Source: Desulfobacterales bacterium (lineage in GTDB: Bacteria; Desulfobacterota; Desulfobacteria; Desulfobacterales; UBA5852). Taken from it: a stretch of 64,000 bases of DNA. The notes under the pieces are model-generated. The model searched no databases. It worked only from the letters and a program-made list of their open reading frames with translations, and was not told the origin of the DNA. Positions 52,951-62,273 of the stretch are shown here, one piece after another (positions within the stretch are counted from its first letter, which is position 1; every line of letters begins with the position of its first letter). The DNA lies in NCBI GenBank assembly GCA_963674755.2, contig CAXXVS010000002.1, positions 832,001-896,000 on the forward strand, in the 5' to 3' direction. The translations under genes and the position numbers were made by a program.

Positions 52951-53105
52951 AGCCCATGTCGGTTGGCGAACATTTGGCCAACAGCCCGCCACCACCCCAT
53001 ACAAATTTCGGGAGCTGCCGCGAAGCCTGAAACACCGCAAGACGAAGGGCCTTTCAACGCAGATGCCGCAGATTTAATGACTCATAACCAAACAGGAGGA
53101 GACGC

Positions 53106-53900
53106 ATGACCTACAGCAACATCACCTTCGACGTCCAGGACAGGCTGGCCATCGTGACGTTCAACCGCCCCAAGGCGCTGAATGCCCTCAATCGCGCGTT
53201 GCTGGATGAATTCGCCCAAGCCCTCGATCAGGTCGAGGCCAGCGAAGAGATCCGCGTTCTGGTGCTCACCGGGAGCGGTGACAAGGCCTTTGTGGCCGGG
53301 GCCGACATCACCGAGATCAATCAGTTGGGACCGTTGGGGGCCAAGCAATTTGCCCGCCGGGGCATGGATACCATCAATCGACTGACCCAGTTGCCCATTC
53401 CGGTCATTGCGGCGGTCAACGGCTACGCCTTGGGGGGCGGCACGGAAATGGCCCTGGCCTGCGATTTCGTCTATGCGGCCGAGACGGCCCAGTTCGGACT
53501 GCCGGAAATCACCCTGGGTATCATTCCGGGGTTCGGCGGAACCCAACGGCTGTCCCGCCTCATCGGAGCCAACATGGCCCGGGAAATGATCTATACCGGC
53601 AAGATGATCGCTGCGGCCGAAGCCCTGCGTCTGGGAATCGTCAACAAGGTTTGCGCACCGGACCAATTGATGGCCGATGTTGAGAAGACGGTTGCCGCCA
53701 TCGCCCAAAAGGGGCGTGTGGCCCTGCGGGCCGCCAAACAGGCCATCAACAACGGACTGAATGTCGATCTGGCATCGGGCCTGGCTTTGGAAAACGATGC
53801 CTTTGCCCTTTGCCTGGCCAGTCCCGATGCCTATGAGGGCACGAGCGCCTTCCTGGAAAAACGCAAGGCGGACTTTACGGGAACCTTGAACGACGGCTAA
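53106..53900 (+). CDS. Enoyl-CoA hydratase (crotonase)
   Basis: AFVAGADI, GYALGGGTE, FGLPEITLG..PGFGGTQRL (both catalytic Glu present). Confidence 0.9.
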   Translation: MTYSNITFDVQDRLAIVTFNRPKALNALNRALLDEFAQALDQVEASEEIRVLVLTGSGDKAFVAGADITEINQLGPLGAKQFARRGMDTINRLTQLPIPVIAAVNGYALGGGTEMALACDFVYAAETAQFGLPEITLGIIPGFGGTQRLSRLIGANMAREMIYTGKMIAAAEALRLGIVNKVCAPDQLMADVEKTVAAIAQKGRVALRAAKQAINNGLNVDLASGLALENDAFALCLASPDAYEGTSAFLEKRKADFTGTLNDG

Positions 53901-54025
53901 AGCCGTCCATCGGTATGGATGAACCGGCTGTGGCCCAAGGCCGCGGCCGGCCTGCCATTGCGGCTAAAGCGCGCGTAATACCCCGGTAACAGCGGGCAAA
54001 CCAGCTAATCCCGGGCGCTTTTCGC

Positions 54026-54054
54026 TTGACAGGCGCAATGACATCCGCTATGCA
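54026..54054 (+). promoter_or_regulatory. Candidate sigma70 promoter for the leader/paaK operon
   Basis: TTGACA-17 nt-TATGCA (perfect -35, weak -10). Confidence 0.5.
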
Positions 54055-54086
54055 GACAAAAACACTTCATCAGCCGGACACAATCC

Positions 54087-54173
54087 ATGATGAACGCGCG
54101 TATCTACTTTTATTTTTTTGGCTTTTGCGGGGGCTTTCACTTTAGGAAGTCCACCCGTGAGCCGTCATCGTAG
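54087..54173 (+). CDS. Phe/Tyr-rich attenuator leader peptide (28 aa)
   Basis: MMNARIYFYFFGFCGGFHFRKSTREPSS*: six Phe (all TTT) and two Tyr; GGA upstream; followed by alternative hairpins. Confidence 0.8.
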   Translation: MMNARIYFYFFGFCGGFHFRKSTREPSS

Positions 54174-54196
54174 ATACCGCCGACAACACGATTGAC

Positions 54197-54241
54197 AAGA
54201 CCATGGGGGGACGAAAGAAACCAACCCATGGTCTTTTTTTT
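54197..54241 (+). terminator. Intrinsic (attenuator) terminator upstream of paaK
   Basis: 11-bp stem AAGACCATGGG/CCCATGGTCTT with an 8-T tract at 54234-54241. Confidence 0.85.
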
Positions 54242-54358
54242 GGGCTGCGGGTTGCCGACCTGGCAGCTTTTTTTACGGCCGCGCCATTGGTTAACGCCCG
54301 CGCCGATGCGACATCGCTATGTTGATCTCTGATGGGTCTGAAAAGGAGGAAGACGTCC

Positions 54359-55660
<1,302 letters not shown>

Positions 55661-55670
55661 GGAGGCAACC

Positions 55671-56102
55671 ATGCGAGCAGAACAGATATCTGTTTTTTTG
55701 GAAAACAAGGCCGGCCGGTTATGCGAGGTAACGGGCGTGCTGGCCGAAGCCCAGGTCAATATTCGCGCCCTGGCCCTGGCCGACACGTCGGATTTCGGCG
55801 TGCTGCGGTTGATTGTAGACCAAGCTGAAAAGGCCAAGGAAGCCCTTAAAAAAGCCGGATTCACCGTGGGCAAGACCAACGTATTGGCTGTGGAAGTACC
55901 CGACCGCCCCGGCGGATTGTACGAAATTCTCAACCTTCTTCAGACCAACAACATCAACGTGGAATATATGTACGCCTTCGTCCAGCAGAGCGGCAGCAAT
56001 GCCGTTATGATATTCCGCTTCGACAATACGGACGAAGCGCTCCGGGTCATTCAGCAAAACGGGTTGCGGGTGATCGACGGACAGACCCTTTACGGCATGT
56101 AG
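55671..56102 (+). CDS. Tandem ACT-domain protein
   Basis: QISVFLENKAGRL and VPDRPGGL...NINVEYMYAF; AGGAGG RBS. Confidence 0.9.
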   Translation: MRAEQISVFLENKAGRLCEVTGVLAEAQVNIRALALADTSDFGVLRLIVDQAEKAKEALKKAGFTVGKTNVLAVEVPDRPGGLYEILNLLQTNNINVEYMYAFVQQSGSNAVMIFRFDNTDEALRVIQQNGLRVIDGQTLYGM

Positions 56103-56240
56103 AACCTGCCGCCTAAGCAGCAGCGCGCCCGACGCGATTACGACTGGGCGATGGATCTCTTGCGAGGCCTGCAGGTAAAAATGGCATTCAACGGCTGGCG
56201 GAAGAAAAGGACCGGCCACATCCAAACAAGGGGAGGAGAC

Positions 56241-57392
56241 ATGGCACATCGAAGTGTTAAGTTCGTGATAGCTGTCCTGATCATCAGTTTGGTTGCGATT
56301 CCGGCCGCAATGGCCGAATCCGTCAAAATCGGTGCGATTCTGGCGGTCACCGGGCCGGCATCCTTTCTCGGTGGTCCGGAGGCACGGACCCTTGAAATGC
56401 TGGTGGAGCAAACCAATGCTGCCGGGGGCATCAACGGCATGCCGGTCGAGTTGATCATCAAGGATTCCGGTGCCAATCCGGAAAAAGCGATTTCCTTTGC
56501 CAAACAACTCATCGAAGAAGACCAGGTGGCCGTCGTGTTGGGTCCCACAACCTCCGGTGAGACCATGAAAGTCAAGAAGATCTTCGAGCAGGCCCAGACG
56601 CCGCTGATTTCCTGTGCCGCAGCCGAGGTGATCGTCAATCCGGTGGCACAATACGTTTTCAAGACCCCCCAGAAAGACTCCTTTGCCGCCCAGAAAATCT
56701 TTCAGACCATGAAGGCCATGGGCATTTCCAAAATTGCCGTTCTGGCGGGCAATACCGGCTTCGGCAAAGCCGGCCGCCAGCAACTGCTCAAACTCGCGCC
56801 TGAAATGGGCATCCAAGTGGTCGAAGATGAAGTTTACGACAAGGGCTCCAAGGATTTATCGGCCGTGGTGGCCAAGCTCAAAGCCAACCCGGATGTCCAG
56901 GCAGTGGTCAACTGGTCCATCGTCCCGGCCCAGGCCATCGTGGCCAAGAATATGCGCCAGGCCGGATGGGACGTGCCCCTGTTTCAGAGCCACGGATTCG
57001 GCAATATCAAATATGTCGAAACCGCGGGGGCGGCGGCCGAAGGCATCATCTTCCCGGCCGGTCGGCTGCTGGTTGCCGATCAACTGCCGGCGAGCAACCC
57101 CCAGAAAGCCCTGCTGATGGATTACATCGCCGCCTATGAAGGCCGTTACAAGGAAGCGGTCTCGACCTTCGGCGGACACGCTTACGATGCTTTCATCATC
57201 GCCAAGACCGCCATCGAAAAGGCCGGTACGGACAAGGCCAAAATCCGGGAAGCGATCGAAAACATCAAAGATCTGCCGGGCACCGGCGGCGTGTTCAGCT
57301 TTTCGGCGGAGGACCACAACGGTCTGGATATCGACTCCTTCGAGATGATCACCGTAAAGGACGGCAAGTTCGTTCCGTACAAGGGGATGTAA
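56241..57392 (+). CDS. ABC transporter substrate-binding protein (HAAT/LivJ-like)
   Basis: Signal peptide; VKIGAILAVTGPA, NAAGGING, AYDA; GGAGG RBS. Confidence 0.9.
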   Translation: MAHRSVKFVIAVLIISLVAIPAAMAESVKIGAILAVTGPASFLGGPEARTLEMLVEQTNAAGGINGMPVELIIKDSGANPEKAISFAKQLIEEDQVAVVLGPTTSGETMKVKKIFEQAQTPLISCAAAEVIVNPVAQYVFKTPQKDSFAAQKIFQTMKAMGISKIAVLAGNTGFGKAGRQQLLKLAPEMGIQVVEDEVYDKGSKDLSAVVAKLKANPDVQAVVNWSIVPAQAIVAKNMRQAGWDVPLFQSHGFGNIKYVETAGAAAEGIIFPAGRLLVADQLPASNPQKALLMDYIAAYEGRYKEAVSTFGGHAYDAFIIAKTAIEKAGTDKAKIREAIENIKDLPGTGGVFSFSAEDHNGLDIDSFEMITVKDGKFVPYKGM

Positions 57393-57437: not shown

Positions 57438-57497
57438 AGGGGCCGGGAGTGGCCGGCCCCTTTGCTGCTTTTGCAAGCCCCCGGACGAGGCTTTTTT
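57438..57497 (+). terminator. Two hairpins between the SBP and permease genes (partial terminator or mRNA stabiliser)
   Basis: AGGGGCCGG/CCGGCCCCT stem (57438-57461), then AAGCC/GGCTT followed by T6. Confidence 0.5.
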
Positions 57498-57531
57498 GTC
57501 CGGCGTTTGCGCAACGCTATCGGCTGCCCCC

Positions 57532-58422
57532 ATGACCGCTGAACTGTTCATCCAGTATCTCTTCGCCGGCATTACCTATGGTGCGATCTACGCCATCGTG
57601 GCCATCGGTTTCAATATCATTTACAACACCACCGGCATCATCAATTTCGCCCAGGGTGAGTTTGTCATGCTGGGCGGCATGATCTCAATTTCACTTTTGC
57701 CCTATATGCCGCTTTGGATCGCGATTGCCATTGCCGTGGTCGTGACGATGGTTTGCGGAGGGCTGATAGAAATCTGCTTCATCCGTTGGCTGGAGAATCC
57801 GGGGGTTTTGCGGATGGTTATCATCACCATCGGATTATCCATCCTGATCCGCGAAGCCGCCCTGCATATCTGGGGCGAGTCCATCCGTTCGCTGCCCTAT
57901 TTTATCGGCGACGAAATCACCACCGTAGCTATTTTAGGCGCACGGATTTCTCCTCAAGTGCTATGGGTCATCGGCGCCTGCGGGTTGATGGTGCTTTTCC
58001 TGAGCGTTTTCTTCCAAACCACTTCGGCCGGAAGGCAGATGCGGGCCTGCGCGGCCAATCGCAAGGCAGCCCTTCTATGCGGGATCAACACCCGCAATAT
58101 GGTCACCCTGTCTTTCATGCTCAGCGCCGGTATCGGGGCCCTGGCCGGATGCGTCATGTCACCCATTACTTCCACCCAATACGATATCGGAACGGGCCTG
58201 GCGATCAAGGGCTTTACCGTGGCGATCCTGGGAGGGTTGGGCAACTCCATGGCGGCCGTAGGCGCCGGGCTGGTGCTTGGCATTCTGGAAGCCTTCTCCA
58301 TTTCGGTGGTCCCCCTGGCCTTCAAGGATGCCATTGCGATCTTTATTTTGCTGCTGATTCTTTTTGTGCGCCCTTACGGTCTTTTCGGCTCGCGCATGGT
58401 GGCCGGATTGAAGGAGTTTTGA
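57532..58422 (+). CDS. HAAT ABC permease (LivH-like)
   Basis: INFAQGEF, GRQMRACA.N, AILGGLG. Confidence 0.9.
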   Translation: MTAELFIQYLFAGITYGAIYAIVAIGFNIIYNTTGIINFAQGEFVMLGGMISISLLPYMPLWIAIAIAVVVTMVCGGLIEICFIRWLENPGVLRMVIITIGLSILIREAALHIWGESIRSLPYFIGDEITTVAILGARISPQVLWVIGACGLMVLFLSVFFQTTSAGRQMRACAANRKAALLCGINTRNMVTLSFMLSAGIGALAGCVMSPITSTQYDIGTGLAIKGFTVAILGGLGNSMAAVGAGLVLGILEAFSISVVPLAFKDAIAIFILLLILFVRPYGLFGSRMVAGLKEF

Positions 58423-58424
58423 CG

Positions 58425-59507
58425 ATGAAGAAAATGCTCCCCCTGGCAGTGTTGCTTCTCATCGTCGTTACCGTCCAACAAATCACCGCCTGGAGCGACA
58501 CCCGTTTCTACCTCACCCAATTGACCATGGCAGCCTACTACGCTTTGCTGATCATCGGGCTGTGTGTCGTGATGGGGTACGCCGGTCAGATCTCCCTTGG
58601 CCATGCCGGTTTTTTCGCCATCGGCGGGTATCTGTCCGCCGCGTTGACCACACGGAATCTGGTGGCTTACAGCGGCAGCGGATTCATCAAAGCCCTCGAT
58701 GCGCTAGGCCTGCTGGTGGCTGGCCAGGATATTTACGGTGACGCCCTCCTGGTAGTCAACCCATGGGCGGCCTGTATCGTGGCGGTATTGACCGCGGGCA
58801 TCATTGCCTGGATGCTGGGCATACCGGTACTCAAACTCAAGGGGCATTACCTGGCCATGGCAACCCTGGGATTCGGAATCATCGTCTACCGCATCGTGCT
58901 GGCCAGCGCTTACTTCGGCGAAGCGGACGGTATCTCCGAAGTGCCGGCCTTCCCCCTGATCTTCGGTCTCAGGGTGAGCGGCGATTTCGGGGCCCGGGAG
59001 CAAAACTATTACATCGCCTGGGGGTTGCTCATCATTGGCATGGTCCTGCTGCGGAACCTGATCGACAGCCGGGTGGGCCGGGCGTTACGTTCGATTCACG
59101 GATCCGAGGAGGCGGCCGATTCGGTGGGCGTCAACACGGCGCGCTTCAAATTGCAGGTGTTCGTGCTGTCGGCGGTTTTTGCCGCCCTGGCCGGCGTCTT
59201 CATGACCCATTACAACGGCGGCATCGGACCGTCTGAGGCCGGGGTTATGAAATCCGTACGTTATGTGGCTATTGTGGCGGTGGGGGGCATGGCCCATCTC
59301 TGGGGGGCCCTGATCATGGGGATCGTTCTCAATTTTCTATCCCTCAGGGGAGTTTTCGGCTCCTACGACGACGCGGTGTTCGGGGCGATTCTGATTGCCA
59401 TCATGCTGTTTGCGCCCAACGGTATTCTAAGCCTGAACTGGCGCGGAACCCTGGGGGGGCTGCTGAGGCTGCCCGGCCGGCGACAGGACGCGGGGAGGGG
59501 AGCCTGA
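58425..59507 (+). CDS. HAAT ABC permease (LivM-like)
   Basis: GYAGQISLGHAGFFAIGGY, LKGHYLAMATL, SRVGRAL; AAGGAG RBS. Confidence 0.9.
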   Translation: MKKMLPLAVLLLIVVTVQQITAWSDTRFYLTQLTMAAYYALLIIGLCVVMGYAGQISLGHAGFFAIGGYLSAALTTRNLVAYSGSGFIKALDALGLLVAGQDIYGDALLVVNPWAACIVAVLTAGIIAWMLGIPVLKLKGHYLAMATLGFGIIVYRIVLASAYFGEADGISEVPAFPLIFGLRVSGDFGAREQNYYIAWGLLIIGMVLLRNLIDSRVGRALRSIHGSEEAADSVGVNTARFKLQVFVLSAVFAALAGVFMTHYNGGIGPSEAGVMKSVRYVAIVAVGGMAHLWGALIMGIVLNFLSLRGVFGSYDDAVFGAILIAIMLFAPNGILSLNWRGTLGGLLRLPGRRQDAGRGA

Positions 59508-60262
59508 TGGCGCTGCTCGAAGTATCCCACCTGCACAAGAAATTCGGCGGCCTGCATGCGGTCAACGACGTCTCTTTTGCTGTCGAGAAGGGGATCATCA
59601 AATCCGTCATCGGACCCAACGGGGCCGGCAAGACGACCCTCTTCAACCTTATTACGGGCGCCCTCACGGCCACTTCCGGGCAGGTGGCCTTCGACGGCCA
59701 GGATATCCAGGGGCGCAAGCCGCACCAGATCGCGGCCTGCGGGATCGCGCGGACTTTTCAGAATATCAAGCTCTTTCACGACATGACTGCCCTGGAAAAT
59801 GTCATGGTAGGGCGTCACCTGCGCAGCCGGGCCGGCTTTGTGGCCTCCATGCTGCACATGCCCTGGACGTTTAAAGAAGAAAGGGCCATCCGGGATAAAT
59901 CCATCGCGTTACTCGAATTGCTGGAGATCGCGGCTTATGCCGACGTGGACGCCGCCAGTCTGGCGTTCGGTCAGCAGCGGGCCGTCGAGTTTGCCCGCGC
60001 TCTGGCGCTGGAACCGACTCTGCTGCTGCTGGATGAGCCGGCCGCCGGACTGAATATGCAGGAAACCGTCGAAATCGGCCGGTTGATCACCAGGATCCGG
60101 GATCTCGGCATTACCGTCCTGCTTGTGGAACACGATATGTCTCTGGTAATGGATATATCCGATGAAATCGTGGTGCTGAGCTTTGGCCAGAAAATTGCCG
60201 ACGATGTCCCCACGGCCATCCAGAACCATTCGGAAGTGATCAAGGTCTACCTTGGTGCTTAG
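59507..60262 (+). CDS. HAAT ABC ATPase (LivG-like)
   Basis: [28 protein letters not shown]. Confidence 0.92.
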
Positions 60263-60277
60263 GAATCCGGCCGCGTT

Positions 60278-61018
60278 ATGTTGAAGATCCGCAATCTCCA
60301 GTCCGGCTATGGCAAGCTGAAGGTCCTCAAGAACGTCTCCATGCACGTGGAAGAGGGGGAGATCGTCACCATTATCGGGGCCAACGGAGCGGGCAAGACC
60401 ACCTTGCTGTCCACCATCGCCGGTCTGATCCGTGCCACTTCAGGGGAGATGGTGTTCAAGGGGCGGAACATCGACGGGATGGCGCCCCAGAAGATTCCCG
60501 CCCTGGGCTGTGTCATGGTTCCCGAAGGCCGACAGGTATTCGCCCCCCTTTCCGTCGAGGAGAACTTGATCCTGGGGGGGCACATCTTAAAGAAAGAGGG
60601 ACGTCCGACGCTGGAGCGGCAACTGGAAACGCAGTATGCTCTGTTTCCCATTTTAAAGGAACGCCGGAACCAGTATGCCGGTACGCTTTCCGGTGGTGAG
60701 CAGCAGATGCTGGCCATGGCCCGTGCGTTGATGTCCAAACCGGCGCTGATCATGATGGACGAGCCGTCCACCGGACTGGCGCCGCTCATCGTACAGGATA
60801 TTTTCAGGGTCATCGTCCAGTTGCGCGACGAGGGCAAAACCGTGCTGCTGGTGGAACAGAATGCCAAGGCGGCGCTCCAGGTGGCGGATCGGGGCTACGT
60901 GTTTGAAACCGGCCAAGTGGTTCTGCAGGGCAGCGCCCCTGAACTGCTGGAAGATGAAGAAGTCAAACGGGCTTATCTTGGAAAGGATTACGGAGAATTC
61001 TATGATGGAAAAGCCTGA
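60278..61018 (+). CDS. HAAT ABC ATPase (LivF-like)
   Basis: [31 protein letters not shown]. Confidence 0.92.
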   Translation: MLKIRNLQSGYGKLKVLKNVSMHVEEGEIVTIIGANGAGKTTLLSTIAGLIRATSGEMVFKGRNIDGMAPQKIPALGCVMVPEGRQVFAPLSVEENLILGGHILKKEGRPTLERQLETQYALFPILKERRNQYAGTLSGGEQQMLAMARALMSKPALIMMDEPSTGLAPLIVQDIFRVIVQLRDEGKTVLLVEQNAKAALQVADRGYVFETGQVVLQGSAPELLEDEEVKRAYLGKDYGEFYDGKA

Positions 61019-62273
61019 CACCCATGTTTGCATCCCCGCCGATCGCAGCCAGATGGTGCTGGAGCGTCTGCAAAGCACCCTGAATCGCGCTTTCCGCAAT
61101 GTGTCCTTTCATCGGCAACGTTTCCAGGAAAAGGGGATCGACCCGTCCAATATCCAAGCCCTCGACGATATTCGGCGGCTGCCCTTTACAACCCGTCAGC
61201 ATCTCAGTGAAAATTACCCCTACGGCCTGTTTGCCGTGCCCCTGCGCGATATCGTGCGCATTCATACGGCCCCGGGAACCACGGCCAATCCCACGGTCAG
61301 CGGGTATACGCGACAGGATCTCGGCATATGGGAGAGCATGGTGGCCACGGCCCTGCGCAGCTCCGGGGTAACACCCGACGATATTCTGCAGATCAGTCTG
61401 GATCCAGGCCTGGCGACCTGGGGGCGCGACTACCAAAGCGGCGCGGAGACCCTGGGGGCCAGTGTCATCCCCAACACCCTCATGTCCGTCGAAAAACAGG
61501 TCATGGTCATGCGGGACTATAAGCCTTCCACCCTGGTGACAACCCCATCCTATGCCCAGCAACTGGCGGCTCATTTGGAAAACAAAGGGCTGGATCCCAA
61601 CGGGTTCAGCCTCCAGAAACTGATCTTGGTCGGTGAGCCGGCAAGTCCCGAGCAACGGGATTTCCTGGAAGACAAGCTGCAAGTGCGCACCTGGCAGCAT
61701 TTCGGCTTGAGCGAGGTTCCCGGACCGGCCCTGGCCTATGAATGTGAAACCCGGTCCTGCCTGCACGTCAACGACGATCATTTCCTGCCGGAAATTATCG
61801 ATCCTGTTACGGGAGAAGTCCTTCCGATGGGTCACGTCGGGGAGCTTGTGTTGACGACCCTGACCACCCGCGCCTATCCTTTGATCCGGTTCCGGACGGG
61901 CGACATGGCCCGCATCCTGCCCGATGCCTGCGATTGTGACTGCCGCCTGGTGCGCATCGAATGGCGCCCCGAGCGCAGCGACCGGCTGCTCCGGATAAGG
62001 GGCGTCAAGGTCCACGAGCAACAGATCCTCTCCGGCATTGAAAAGGCCCTGGGCATGGCGCCCCAACACGCCTGCATGTTCGAAAACCGCTATCGCGAAA
62101 AGATTTTTCTCGAAATCTGGATTGCCGTGGACAAGGCACTGTTCTCGGACGAAATCAAGATGCTCGAAGCCCGCATGAAAACCGTTCGCGATCAGGTCCA
62201 GGAGGACACGGGGGTTCCGGTAATCGTTCGCCTCAAGGAATGGGCCTCCATCGTTGCCTGCAAATTGGCATAG
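61002..62273 (+). CDS. Divergent second PaaK-family protein
   Basis: Aligns along paaK (YPYGLFAVP..IVRIH, GLSE, DHFLPEII.P.TGEVLP, RGV) but key motifs are altered. Confidence 0.82.
   Translation: MMEKPDTHVCIPADRSQMVLERLQSTLNRAFRNVSFHRQRFQEKGIDPSNIQALDDIRRLPFTTRQHLSENYPYGLFAVPLRDIVRIHTAPGTTANPTVSGYTRQDLGIWESMVATALRSSGVTPDDILQISLDPGLATWGRDYQSGAETLGASVIPNTLMSVEKQVMVMRDYKPSTLVTTPSYAQQLAAHLENKGLDPNGFSLQKLILVGEPASPEQRDFLEDKLQVRTWQHFGLSEVPGPALAYECETRSCLHVNDDHFLPEIIDPVTGEVLPMGHVGELVLTTLTTRAYPLIRFRTGDMARILPDACDCDCRLVRIEWRPERSDRLLRIRGVKVHEQQILSGIEKALGMAPQHACMFENRYREKIFLEIWIAVDKALFSDEIKMLEARMKTVRDQVQEDTGVPVIVRLKEWASIVACKLA

Follow-up and report, generated by a model that had tools for sequence, protein, structure and literature searches.

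A candidate Phe/Tyr leader-peptide attenuator with six pairing segments and two terminators in front of a paaK operon of a Desulfobacterales bacterium

In Escherichia coli, pheA and pheST are each preceded by a leader (pheL and pheM, respectively; the Rfam family Phe_leader is presumably accession RF01859) in which a short open reading frame (ORF) with a run of Phe codons is followed by a terminator and an overlapping antiterminator, and in which stalling of the ribosome results in read-through. In the his leader of Salmonella and E. coli six segments pair either as A:B, C:D and E:F or as B:C and D:E, and only the last hairpin is a terminator. Here we describe a leader of this general type in a stretch of 64,000 nucleotides (nt) from a Desulfobacterales bacterium (GenBank assembly GCA_963674755.2, contig CAXXVS010000002.1, positions 832,001 to 896,000), which is referred to as the window and to which all coordinates refer unless another location is named. 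The leader is located in front of paaK, which encodes a predicted phenylacetate-CoA ligase, and of an ACT-domain gene and genes of a Liv-type transporter (paaK-ACT-liv). The element is a six-segment chain in which the pairings 1:2, 3:4 and 5:6 compete with 2:3 and 4:5 and which contains two terminators. From comparative sequence analysis we conclude that it is very probably a ribosome-mediated transcription attenuator which senses charged tRNA-Phe and tRNA-Tyr.

An earlier sequence-only reading of the window had assigned to this element the architecture of the trp and pheA attenuators. The logic of 1:2, 2:3 and 3:4 pairings, which is shared with trpL, holds, but the four segments of that architecture had to be extended to six, with a second terminator. 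The element differs from trpL by this additional terminator with its relay and by the amino acid that would be sensed. Compared to pheL and pheM, it has mixed Tyr and Phe codons, six segments and two terminators, its host belongs to the Desulfobacterota, its target is paaK-ACT-liv and not pheA or pheST, and it has no match in Rfam. As in the his leader, the terminated state consists of three hairpins and the read-through state of two, so that the position of the ribosome is relayed to the last hairpin, but here the middle hairpin also carries a T-run (in the window itself as well as in 22 of the 35 relatives) and the codons are for Phe and Tyr instead of His. A further likeness, in the proposed role of the operon, is to the route by which Methanococcus maripaludis converts exogenous aryl acids to aromatic amino acids, and we know of no leader-peptide control of that route. 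PMC3082878 gives 53 pheL genes, all of them in Gammaproteobacteria. The search of Rfam that the sequence-only reading had proposed (cmscan of 53800-54500 against the 4227 families of Rfam 15, E ≤ 10) gave no match; the sole hit, a minus-strand one to isrK (E 1.7; 14.4 bits, where the gathering score is 50), is due to chance. The literature covered, which leaves out most subscription journals, contains no account of a leader peptide in front of paaK, and the passages of PMC10102598 considered do not bear on the subject; older comparative papers on proteobacterial attenuators may hold predictions. Judged from these comparisons the mechanism is a classical one, and the RNA family and its target paaK-ACT-liv are new.

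Leader ORF and alternative pairings in the window

The leader ORF encodes the peptide MMNARIYFYFFGFCGGFHFRKSTREPSS, in which eight Phe and Tyr residues are found within residues 7-19, so that the eight aromatic codons in 13 positions reported earlier could be read directly from the sequence. These codons are located at 54105-54119, 54123-25, 54135-37 and 54141-43. The ORF is preceded by a putative promoter of the form TTGACA-N17-TATGCA, which is not listed by a consensus promoter scan because the second hexamer lacks a T at position 6. By eye, TTGACA is found at most 70 nt upstream of the start of the upstream ORF (uORF) in 14 of 18 related leaders, and the arrangement TTGACA-N17-TATnnn also occurs upstream of the aroG leader and the iorA leader in the same genome. 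This promoter, together with outer helix P0, terminator 2 and helix 4:5, had been overlooked in the sequence-only reading.

The pairing segments that had been proposed earlier are all present: GCGGGGGCTTTC (54127-38) with GGAAGTCCACCCGT (54145-58) for 1:2, TCCACCCGTG (54150-59) with CATGGGGGGA (54202-11) for 2:3, the additional pairing of GTCATCGT (54164-71) with ACGATTGAC (54188-96) for 2:3, and the hairpin AGACCATGGGG...CCCATGGTCT (~54197-54235) followed by T8 at 54234-54241 for terminator 1. Folding of 54060-54250 gave -68.3 kcal/mol compared to -47.1 ± 4.0 kcal/mol for 200 dinucleotide shuffles (z -5.30), and none of the 200 shuffles was as good. In the minimum free energy (MFE) folds hairpin 1:2, which spans codons 12-26 of the leader ORF, is enclosed by P0, and the entire ORF thus lies inside one long hairpin (see Table 1 for the extent of all helices). 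Terminator 1 is not listed by a consensus terminator scan because its loop exceeds the 8-nt limit of the scan. The left arm of terminator 2 can be sequestered in helix 4:5, where it pairs to the right arm and T-run of terminator 1; this T-run also makes up the loop of the helix. A description of helix 4:5 as two separate short registers was dropped, since one continuous helix of 13 pairs was found. With three hairpins in the terminated state, two alternatives to them and strands that are shared between neighbours, the chain is of the his type. The local energies in the window are -36.4 kcal/mol for P0 with 1:2, -22.5 for 2:3, -19.7 for 3:4, -14.8 for 4:5 and -14.2 for 5:6.

These pairings suggest the following mechanism, of which three elements are inferred: how the stalled ribosome is positioned, in what kinetic order the helices fold, and that the supply of Phe and Tyr is what the leader responds to. 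Transcription would most likely start just downstream of TTGACA-N17-TATGCA. When the ORF is not translated, or when an unhindered ribosome reaches the stop codon at 54171, hairpin 1:2 (braced by P0), 3:4 and 5:6 would form, and RNA polymerase would halt at the T8 of terminator 1 or at the T7 of terminator 2. Under shortage of Phe or Tyr, the ribosome is expected to stall on the Tyr and Phe codons at 54105-54125 and to cover the 5' arms of P0 and 1:2. In terms of geometry, these codons (codons 7-13) either fall inside the 5' arm of 1:2 or precede it by 0-15 nt. Segment 2 would then be free to pair with segment 3, by which terminator 1 loses its left arm, and the released segment 4 could pair with segment 5, by which terminator 2 loses its left arm as well. 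The polymerase would continue past both terminators and transcribe paaK, the ACT-domain gene, livKHMGF and the second paaK-like gene (paaK2).

Public transcriptome data contribute little at this locus. In a public metatranscriptome three short contigs fall in the region 53000-56500, and the sole one near the leader (54290-54463, 174 nt, depth 3.3) is silent on the leader, its ends and its level; the gap in coverage at 54050-54289 carries no weight either way. Three other public runs which contain the locus are of an unrecorded kind and indicate the presence of DNA only.

Conservation of the leader in Desulfobacterota

A search with the leader DNA in 41 genomes (40 relatives and the genome of the window itself) gave matches in 21 genomes, including all 12 of the same genus. 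All 20 loci that were fetched contain a PaaK orthologue with 82-100% identity. It is preceded by a Phe/Tyr-rich uORF with an ATG start in 17 of the 20 loci (e.g., MLFGNVYFYFFGFFGGFLFRKSTHEPST) and by one with only a TTG start in one more, and the leader is missing in the remaining two (L014 and L018). The exact pattern of segments 2, 3 and 4 occurs at a single site in the genome itself and at 29 loci in 185,579 species genomes, searched as contigs of one genome per species. The carriers belong to Desulfobacteraceae, Desulfobotulus, Desulfatibacillaceae and Desulfacinum, and according to the names in the public records include the cultured strains Desulfacinum infernum DSM 9756, Desulfacinum hydrothermale DSM 13146 and Desulfobotulus alkaliphilus ASO4-4. 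PaaK is encoded downstream of 28 of the 29 pattern loci, directly in 27 and at a distance of ~1.6 kb in L032; at the 29th (L049) a LivK-type binding protein and a permease follow the leader.

For further comparison 35 distinct leaders from Desulfobacterota were pooled, and the counts out of 35 below refer to this set. The ORF was defined as starting at the first ATG of an open stretch, 30-120 nt before segment 2, and ending with a stop at most 60 nt after it. By this rule 26 of the 35 leaders have an ATG ORF in the Phe/Tyr frame, compared to two and one in the other two frames. Five of the nine misses have an additional in-frame ATG upstream with the usual ATG present too (L004, L009, L011, L042 and L045), three have a shorter Phe/Tyr-rich ORF with its stop in the loop of 1:2 (L012, L013 and L029; partly by eye), and L040 is without ATG (by eye). 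Phe and Tyr codons make up 180 of the 420 codons in the 12 positions before segment 2, namely TTT (102), TTC (37), TAT (27) and TAC (14), and over the 12 positions as a whole the second codon letter is enriched in A and the third in C. The N-terminal residues of the leader peptide vary freely with retention of the Phe/Tyr richness. At the nucleotide level, 24 columns are invariant across the 35 leaders. The spacer between terminator 2 and the ribosome-binding site of paaK is not conserved, and in L016 only ~40 nt separate the T-run from the ATG of paaK. L008 and L010 have an insertion of ~200-250 nt, which contains GC-rich inverted repeats, between terminator 2 and paaK, and the leader is otherwise intact.

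Both alternative states of the RNA are conserved with compensatory changes. For the terminated state (1:2, 3:4 and 5:6), 85.8% of the alignment cells are paired, compared to at most 54% when the strands are slid, and 17 pairs have changed on both sides. Hairpin 1:2 is paired in 73-92% of the cells (seven pairs changed on both sides), helix 3:4 in 92.3% (four pairs) and helix 5:6 in 97.5% (six of nine pairs). The antiterminator 2:3 is paired in 93.6% of the cells, compared to at most 50% when slid, and includes the covarying pair 48-114, which is CG in 14, UA in 14 and UG in seven leaders. This covarying pair explains why GAC is invariant in a position that would otherwise be a loop. The weaker second helix of 2:3 is paired in just 68% of the cells. 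Helix 4:5 is paired in 86.4% of the cells, compared to at most 51% when slid, with three pairs changed on both sides, and the isolated 4:5 stretch has a mean z of -2.85 against mononucleotide shuffles, with 27 of the 35 leaders below -1.64. A T-run (at least six of eight) follows 3:4 in 22 leaders and 5:6 in 30; 19 leaders have both and two have neither. In the 11 leaders in which only the second hairpin has a T-run, regulation seems to require the relay through 4:5. The 1:2, 2:3 and 3:4 pairings that had been proposed earlier are confirmed as conserved.

Several observations weigh against the attenuator and its proposed mechanism. By eye, no Shine-Dalgarno motif is visible upstream of the leader ATG in the window, and the -10 hexamer TATGCA is weak. 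The Phe codons at 54135 and 54141 are located inside hairpin 1:2, so that a ribosome stalled there would mask part of segment 2, and the leaders of Desulfobotulus contain only 3-5 aromatic codons. P0 is the least conserved helix (66.8% of the cells paired in alignment A1, with nine of 11 pairs changed on both sides), and the covariation in 4:5 is modest (three pairs, 11 cells). The significance in the shuffle controls, in which none of 500 shuffles equalled the terminated state, is overstated because the leader sequences are related. When segment 1 is masked, 2:3 is part of the equilibrium MFE fold of the whole leader in just six of 18 cases, and 3:4 is retained in 12 of them, including the window. 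Moreover, 4:5 is more stable than 5:6 in just two of 18 leaders. From these folds and from the fact that 4:5 seldom beats 5:6, it follows that the switch must be kinetic (co-transcriptional). The attenuator model was retained on these kinetic grounds and because the local energy of 2:3 exceeds that of 3:4 in 16 of 18 leaders.

Related leaders in the same genome and class

The 35 leaders were used to build a covariance model (R1), with which the window obtains 152 bits. A second Phe/Tyr-rich leader of this genome, MQNVTGKFYFYFGYYYFYAGLPAVC, on the minus strand of contig C3 (C3:567403-567600), obtains 32.7 bits. This leader has a TTGACA-N17-TATCGT promoter and two hairpins with T-runs (also L051:8405-8600), and the operon downstream encodes 3-deoxy-D-arabino-heptulosonate 7-phosphate (DAHP) synthase, 3-dehydroquinate (DHQ) synthase and a shikimate kinase-DHQ synthase fusion. 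Scores below 32.7 bits in this genome were obtained for an Ala-run leader (aminotransferase) and a Trp-run leader (trpE). The Trp-rich leader, MKRSTGHHCIEYRWWWCWWHMP, has hairpins and is located on the minus strand at C2:474381-474545, upstream of a 493-amino acid (aa) ORF that by eye resembles trpE. Behind the Ala-run leader, MTTLMLTSAAAAAAGVPALDAVDSS (C3:1399682-1399813, minus strand), there are two hairpins, the first (CCATGGG...CCCATGG) with T7 and the second with T6; the gene downstream is a 403-aa aminotransferase-like ORF, and the two-terminator layout is as in the paaK leader. A Tyr-rich small ORF at C2:45119 was considered as a leader and rejected, as it encodes the C terminus of a larger protein.

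Of 151 genomes of the class, 125 contain at least one match to R1 at E ≤ 0.001 (E-values are rough). The examination covered 50 of the more than 200 matches, namely the 30 best and a choice of 20 that score lower (46-94 bits) and come from multi-hit genomes. At the 30 best loci PaaK is encoded downstream in 28 and a LivK-type binding protein in two. Nine of the 20 chosen lower matches precede 2-amino-3,7-dideoxy-D-threo-hept-6-ulosonate (ADH) synthase (TIGR01949), seven precede a DAHP synthase-prephenate dehydratase-ACT fusion, one DAHP synthase and three LivK-type binding proteins, and a Phe/Tyr-rich uORF is present in all 20. The fusions (L094, L096, L099, L101-L103 and L109) are 624-639 aa long, one has a ferredoxin-like N-terminal domain, and each is encoded behind a leader with a pure Phe run (...GRFFFGFRSVHPAV). 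The occurrence of Phe/Tyr-rich leaders on genes of the shikimate pathway and of Phe biosynthesis, in the same class and in the same genome, suggests that paaK-ACT-liv is part of an aromatic-starvation regulon. Together with the conservation of the uORF, its frame and its Phe/Tyr richness, such leaders support the attenuator that the sequence-only reading had proposed.

A leader with Trp codons, MQMIMGYGNWWWPAV, followed by a terminator (C1:590611-590658), precedes iorA-iorB and a TRAP-type transporter (downstream to 596412), and its WWW motif is kept in the three relatives checked (loci L053 and L111-L114). This suggests that the iorAB oxidoreductase is induced by shortage of Trp. The genome has two genes for the alpha subunit of indolepyruvate:ferredoxin oxidoreductase (IOR) that score above the NCBIfam cut-off.

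The operon and competing explanations

PaaK scores 648.7 bits on the NCBIfam equivalog TIGR02155, barely above the cut-off of 646.3, and matches the structure of PaaK1 (PDB 2y27, E 3e-157). An ACT-domain gene follows paaK in every related locus that is long enough to show it. The nearest solved relatives of the LivK-type binding protein are binders of aromatic acids, among them CouP of Rhodopseudomonas palustris (4jb0/4jb2; E 1.3e-39 for 4jb0), and binders of Leu, Ile and Val are found at ~1e-15. According to PMC3610893, the ligands of CouP are coumarate, ferulate and 4-hydroxyphenylpyruvate. The gene upstream of the leader encodes an enoyl-CoA hydratase and ends at 53900, and this synteny is conserved. 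A third PaaK paralogue (C2:965796) is located among recBCD and recX genes and is uninformative on catabolism.

Table 1. Positions of the leader elements and of the genes downstream in the window.
Feature	Position	Strand	Description	Basis
Putative promoter	54026-54054	+	-35 TTGACA 54026-31, 17-nt spacer, -10-like TATGCA 54049-54	Read from sequence
Leader ORF	54087-54173	+	28 codons, stop TAG 54171-73	Read from sequence and small-ORF list
Outer helix P0	54096-54180	+	54096-54107 (codons 4-7) with 54170-54180 (stop-codon region)	MFE folds
Hairpin 1:2 (anti-antiterminator)	54120-54163	+	54120-54138 with 54145-54163	MFE folds
Antiterminator 2:3	54149-54212	+	54149-54160 with 54201-54212, and weaker 54164-71 with 54188-96	
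Terminator 1 (3:4)	54197-54241	+	54197-54207 with 54225-54235, then T8 54234-54241	
Second antiterminator 4:5	54222-54254	+	13 pairs, 54222-54234 with 54242-54254	
Terminator 2 (5:6)	54242-54274	+	54242-54251 with 54260-54269, then T7 54268-54274	Listed by consensus terminator scan
paaK	54359-55660	+	Predicted phenylacetate-CoA ligase, 433 aa; GGAGG 54345-49	Pfam AMP-binding, AMP-binding_C_2
ACT-domain-pair protein	55671-56102	+	143 aa	Pfam ACT_8, ACT
LivK-type binding protein	56151-57392	+		Pfam
Permease	57496-58422	+		Pfam
Permease	~58.4-59.5 kb	+		Pfam
ATPase	59507-60262	+		Pfam
ATPase	60278-61018	+		Pfam
Second PaaK-like ligase	61020-62273	+	42% identical to the first	TIGR02155, 326 bits, below cut-off

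If the operon is switched on by shortage of Phe or Tyr, it is unlikely to exist for the degradation of phenylacetate. The encoded proteins would import aryl acids and activate phenylacetate-type acids to their CoA thioesters. Reductive carboxylation of the thioesters to arylpyruvates could follow, catalysed by an indolepyruvate/arylpyruvate:ferredoxin oxidoreductase whose genes lie elsewhere in the genome, and transamination would yield Phe and Tyr. M. maripaludis uses IOR to make aromatic amino acids from aryl acids (Porat et al., cited in PMC4162585), and the passages of PMC4162585 considered do not describe the ligase step and its regulation. Formation of Phe from phenylacetate by rumen microbes is mentioned in PMC7356843. 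By analogy, paaK-ACT-liv may be a salvage route for aryl acids that is co-regulated with the shikimate pathway, a reading which is less certain than the attenuator itself. More broadly, we put forward as a tentative proposal, with a little less than even confidence, that the PaaK-type ligases of Desulfobacteria, their ACT partner and the CouP-like importer are non-catabolic and serve the salvage of Phe and Tyr from phenylacetate-type acids by ferredoxin-dependent reductive carboxylation, that the family of two-terminator Phe/Tyr attenuators joins this module and the shikimate pathway in one regulon, and that iorAB is placed behind a Trp-codon leader. The location of the IOR genes outside the paaK operon speaks against this proposal and makes the salvage reading indirect.

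Two other explanations of the leader were considered, and we regard both as very improbable. The leader could be an independent small gene which has a promoter and tandem terminators of its own and whose product is a small RNA or a hydrophobic peptide of 28 residues, and paaK would then have a separate promoter within 54275-54358. The unit does have a putative promoter, an ORF and two terminators, and the C-terminal half of the peptide (GF.GGF.FRKSxH) is unusually conserved for a leader peptide, but this conserved part coincides with RNA segments 1 and 2, in which the changes are compensatory, and a stand-alone gene has no need for the conserved and mutually exclusive helices 2:3 and 4:5. By eye, the stretch 54311-54325 repeats a portion of the -10 region of the upstream promoter. 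The consensus scan reports no promoter-like site between terminator 2 and paaK, however, and the spacer there is not conserved; its ~40 nt in L016 leave no room for a promoter, and read-through therefore appears to be required. The leader also always precedes paaK or livK. The recurring stretch (GACATCGCTATGTTG, resembling GACATCCGCTATGCA at 54040-54054) was rejected as an internal promoter, since it lacks a suitably spaced -35 hexamer and shows no conservation among relatives. Just as improbable is a switch that is read by a factor in trans, such as a small-molecule ligand, an uncharged tRNA or a protein, for instance the ACT-domain protein of the operon, with the ORF being incidental to a U-rich tract. 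The very high conservation of segments 2-4, to which the 24 invariant columns attest, and the presence of an amino-acid-binding ACT protein in the operon would fit such a switch. It does not account for an ORF whose start and stop are kept in one frame (26 of 35, vs. two and one), for the alternation of synonymous Phe and Tyr codons or for an N-terminal part that is variable in sequence yet rich in Phe and Tyr. Moreover, unrelated leaders with Trp or Ala codon runs precede trpE and the aminotransferase gene in the same genome, and no Rfam family, T-box or riboswitch matched at E ≤ 10.

The ribosome-mediated attenuator is thus preferred for the leader, and a third alternative accepts it and differs on the operon, which might not serve salvage of aryl acids at all: it could import Phe and Tyr themselves, or be catabolic and be tied to Phe/Tyr status in another way. 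We consider this unlikely, though clearly less so than the two explanations above. The transporter belongs to the ABC family for branched-chain and hydrophobic amino acids, and in some genomes the same leader family directly precedes livK-type genes without paaK; the binding protein, however, is much nearer to aromatic-acid binders (~1e-39) than to Leu/Ile/Val binders (~1e-15), and two PaaK-type ligases and the ACT protein would be co-transcribed with the transporter. A catabolic role would agree with the textbook annotation of PaaK and with the enoyl-CoA hydratase gene upstream, but induction by starvation fits supply rather than breakdown, and iorAB carries a Trp-codon leader in this genus.

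If the salvage proposal is true, the widespread and highly conserved paaK-ACT-liv cluster of anaerobes (PaaK 70-95% identical across classes) would be relabelled as biosynthetic salvage, and the orphan ACT protein would gain a testable role as a sensor of Phe and Tyr. The leader defines an additional, well-supported RNA family in which both alternative states show covariation. Regulation in Desulfobacterota is poorly charted, and the related leaders outline a whole candidate leader-peptide regulon in sulfate reducers, comprising ADH synthase, DAHP synthase, the DAHP synthase-prephenate dehydratase fusion, transporters, paaK, iorAB and trpE.

At the iorA locus an element of ~150 nt with long terminal inverted repeats (GACGGCTTCATAAA...TTTATGAAGCCGTC) is located between the Trp leader and iorA (C1 ~590750-590900). 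With matches at 12 further sites of this genome and numerous others in relatives, it looks like a miniature repeat element, and it is absent at the iorA site in the relatives G010 and G001.

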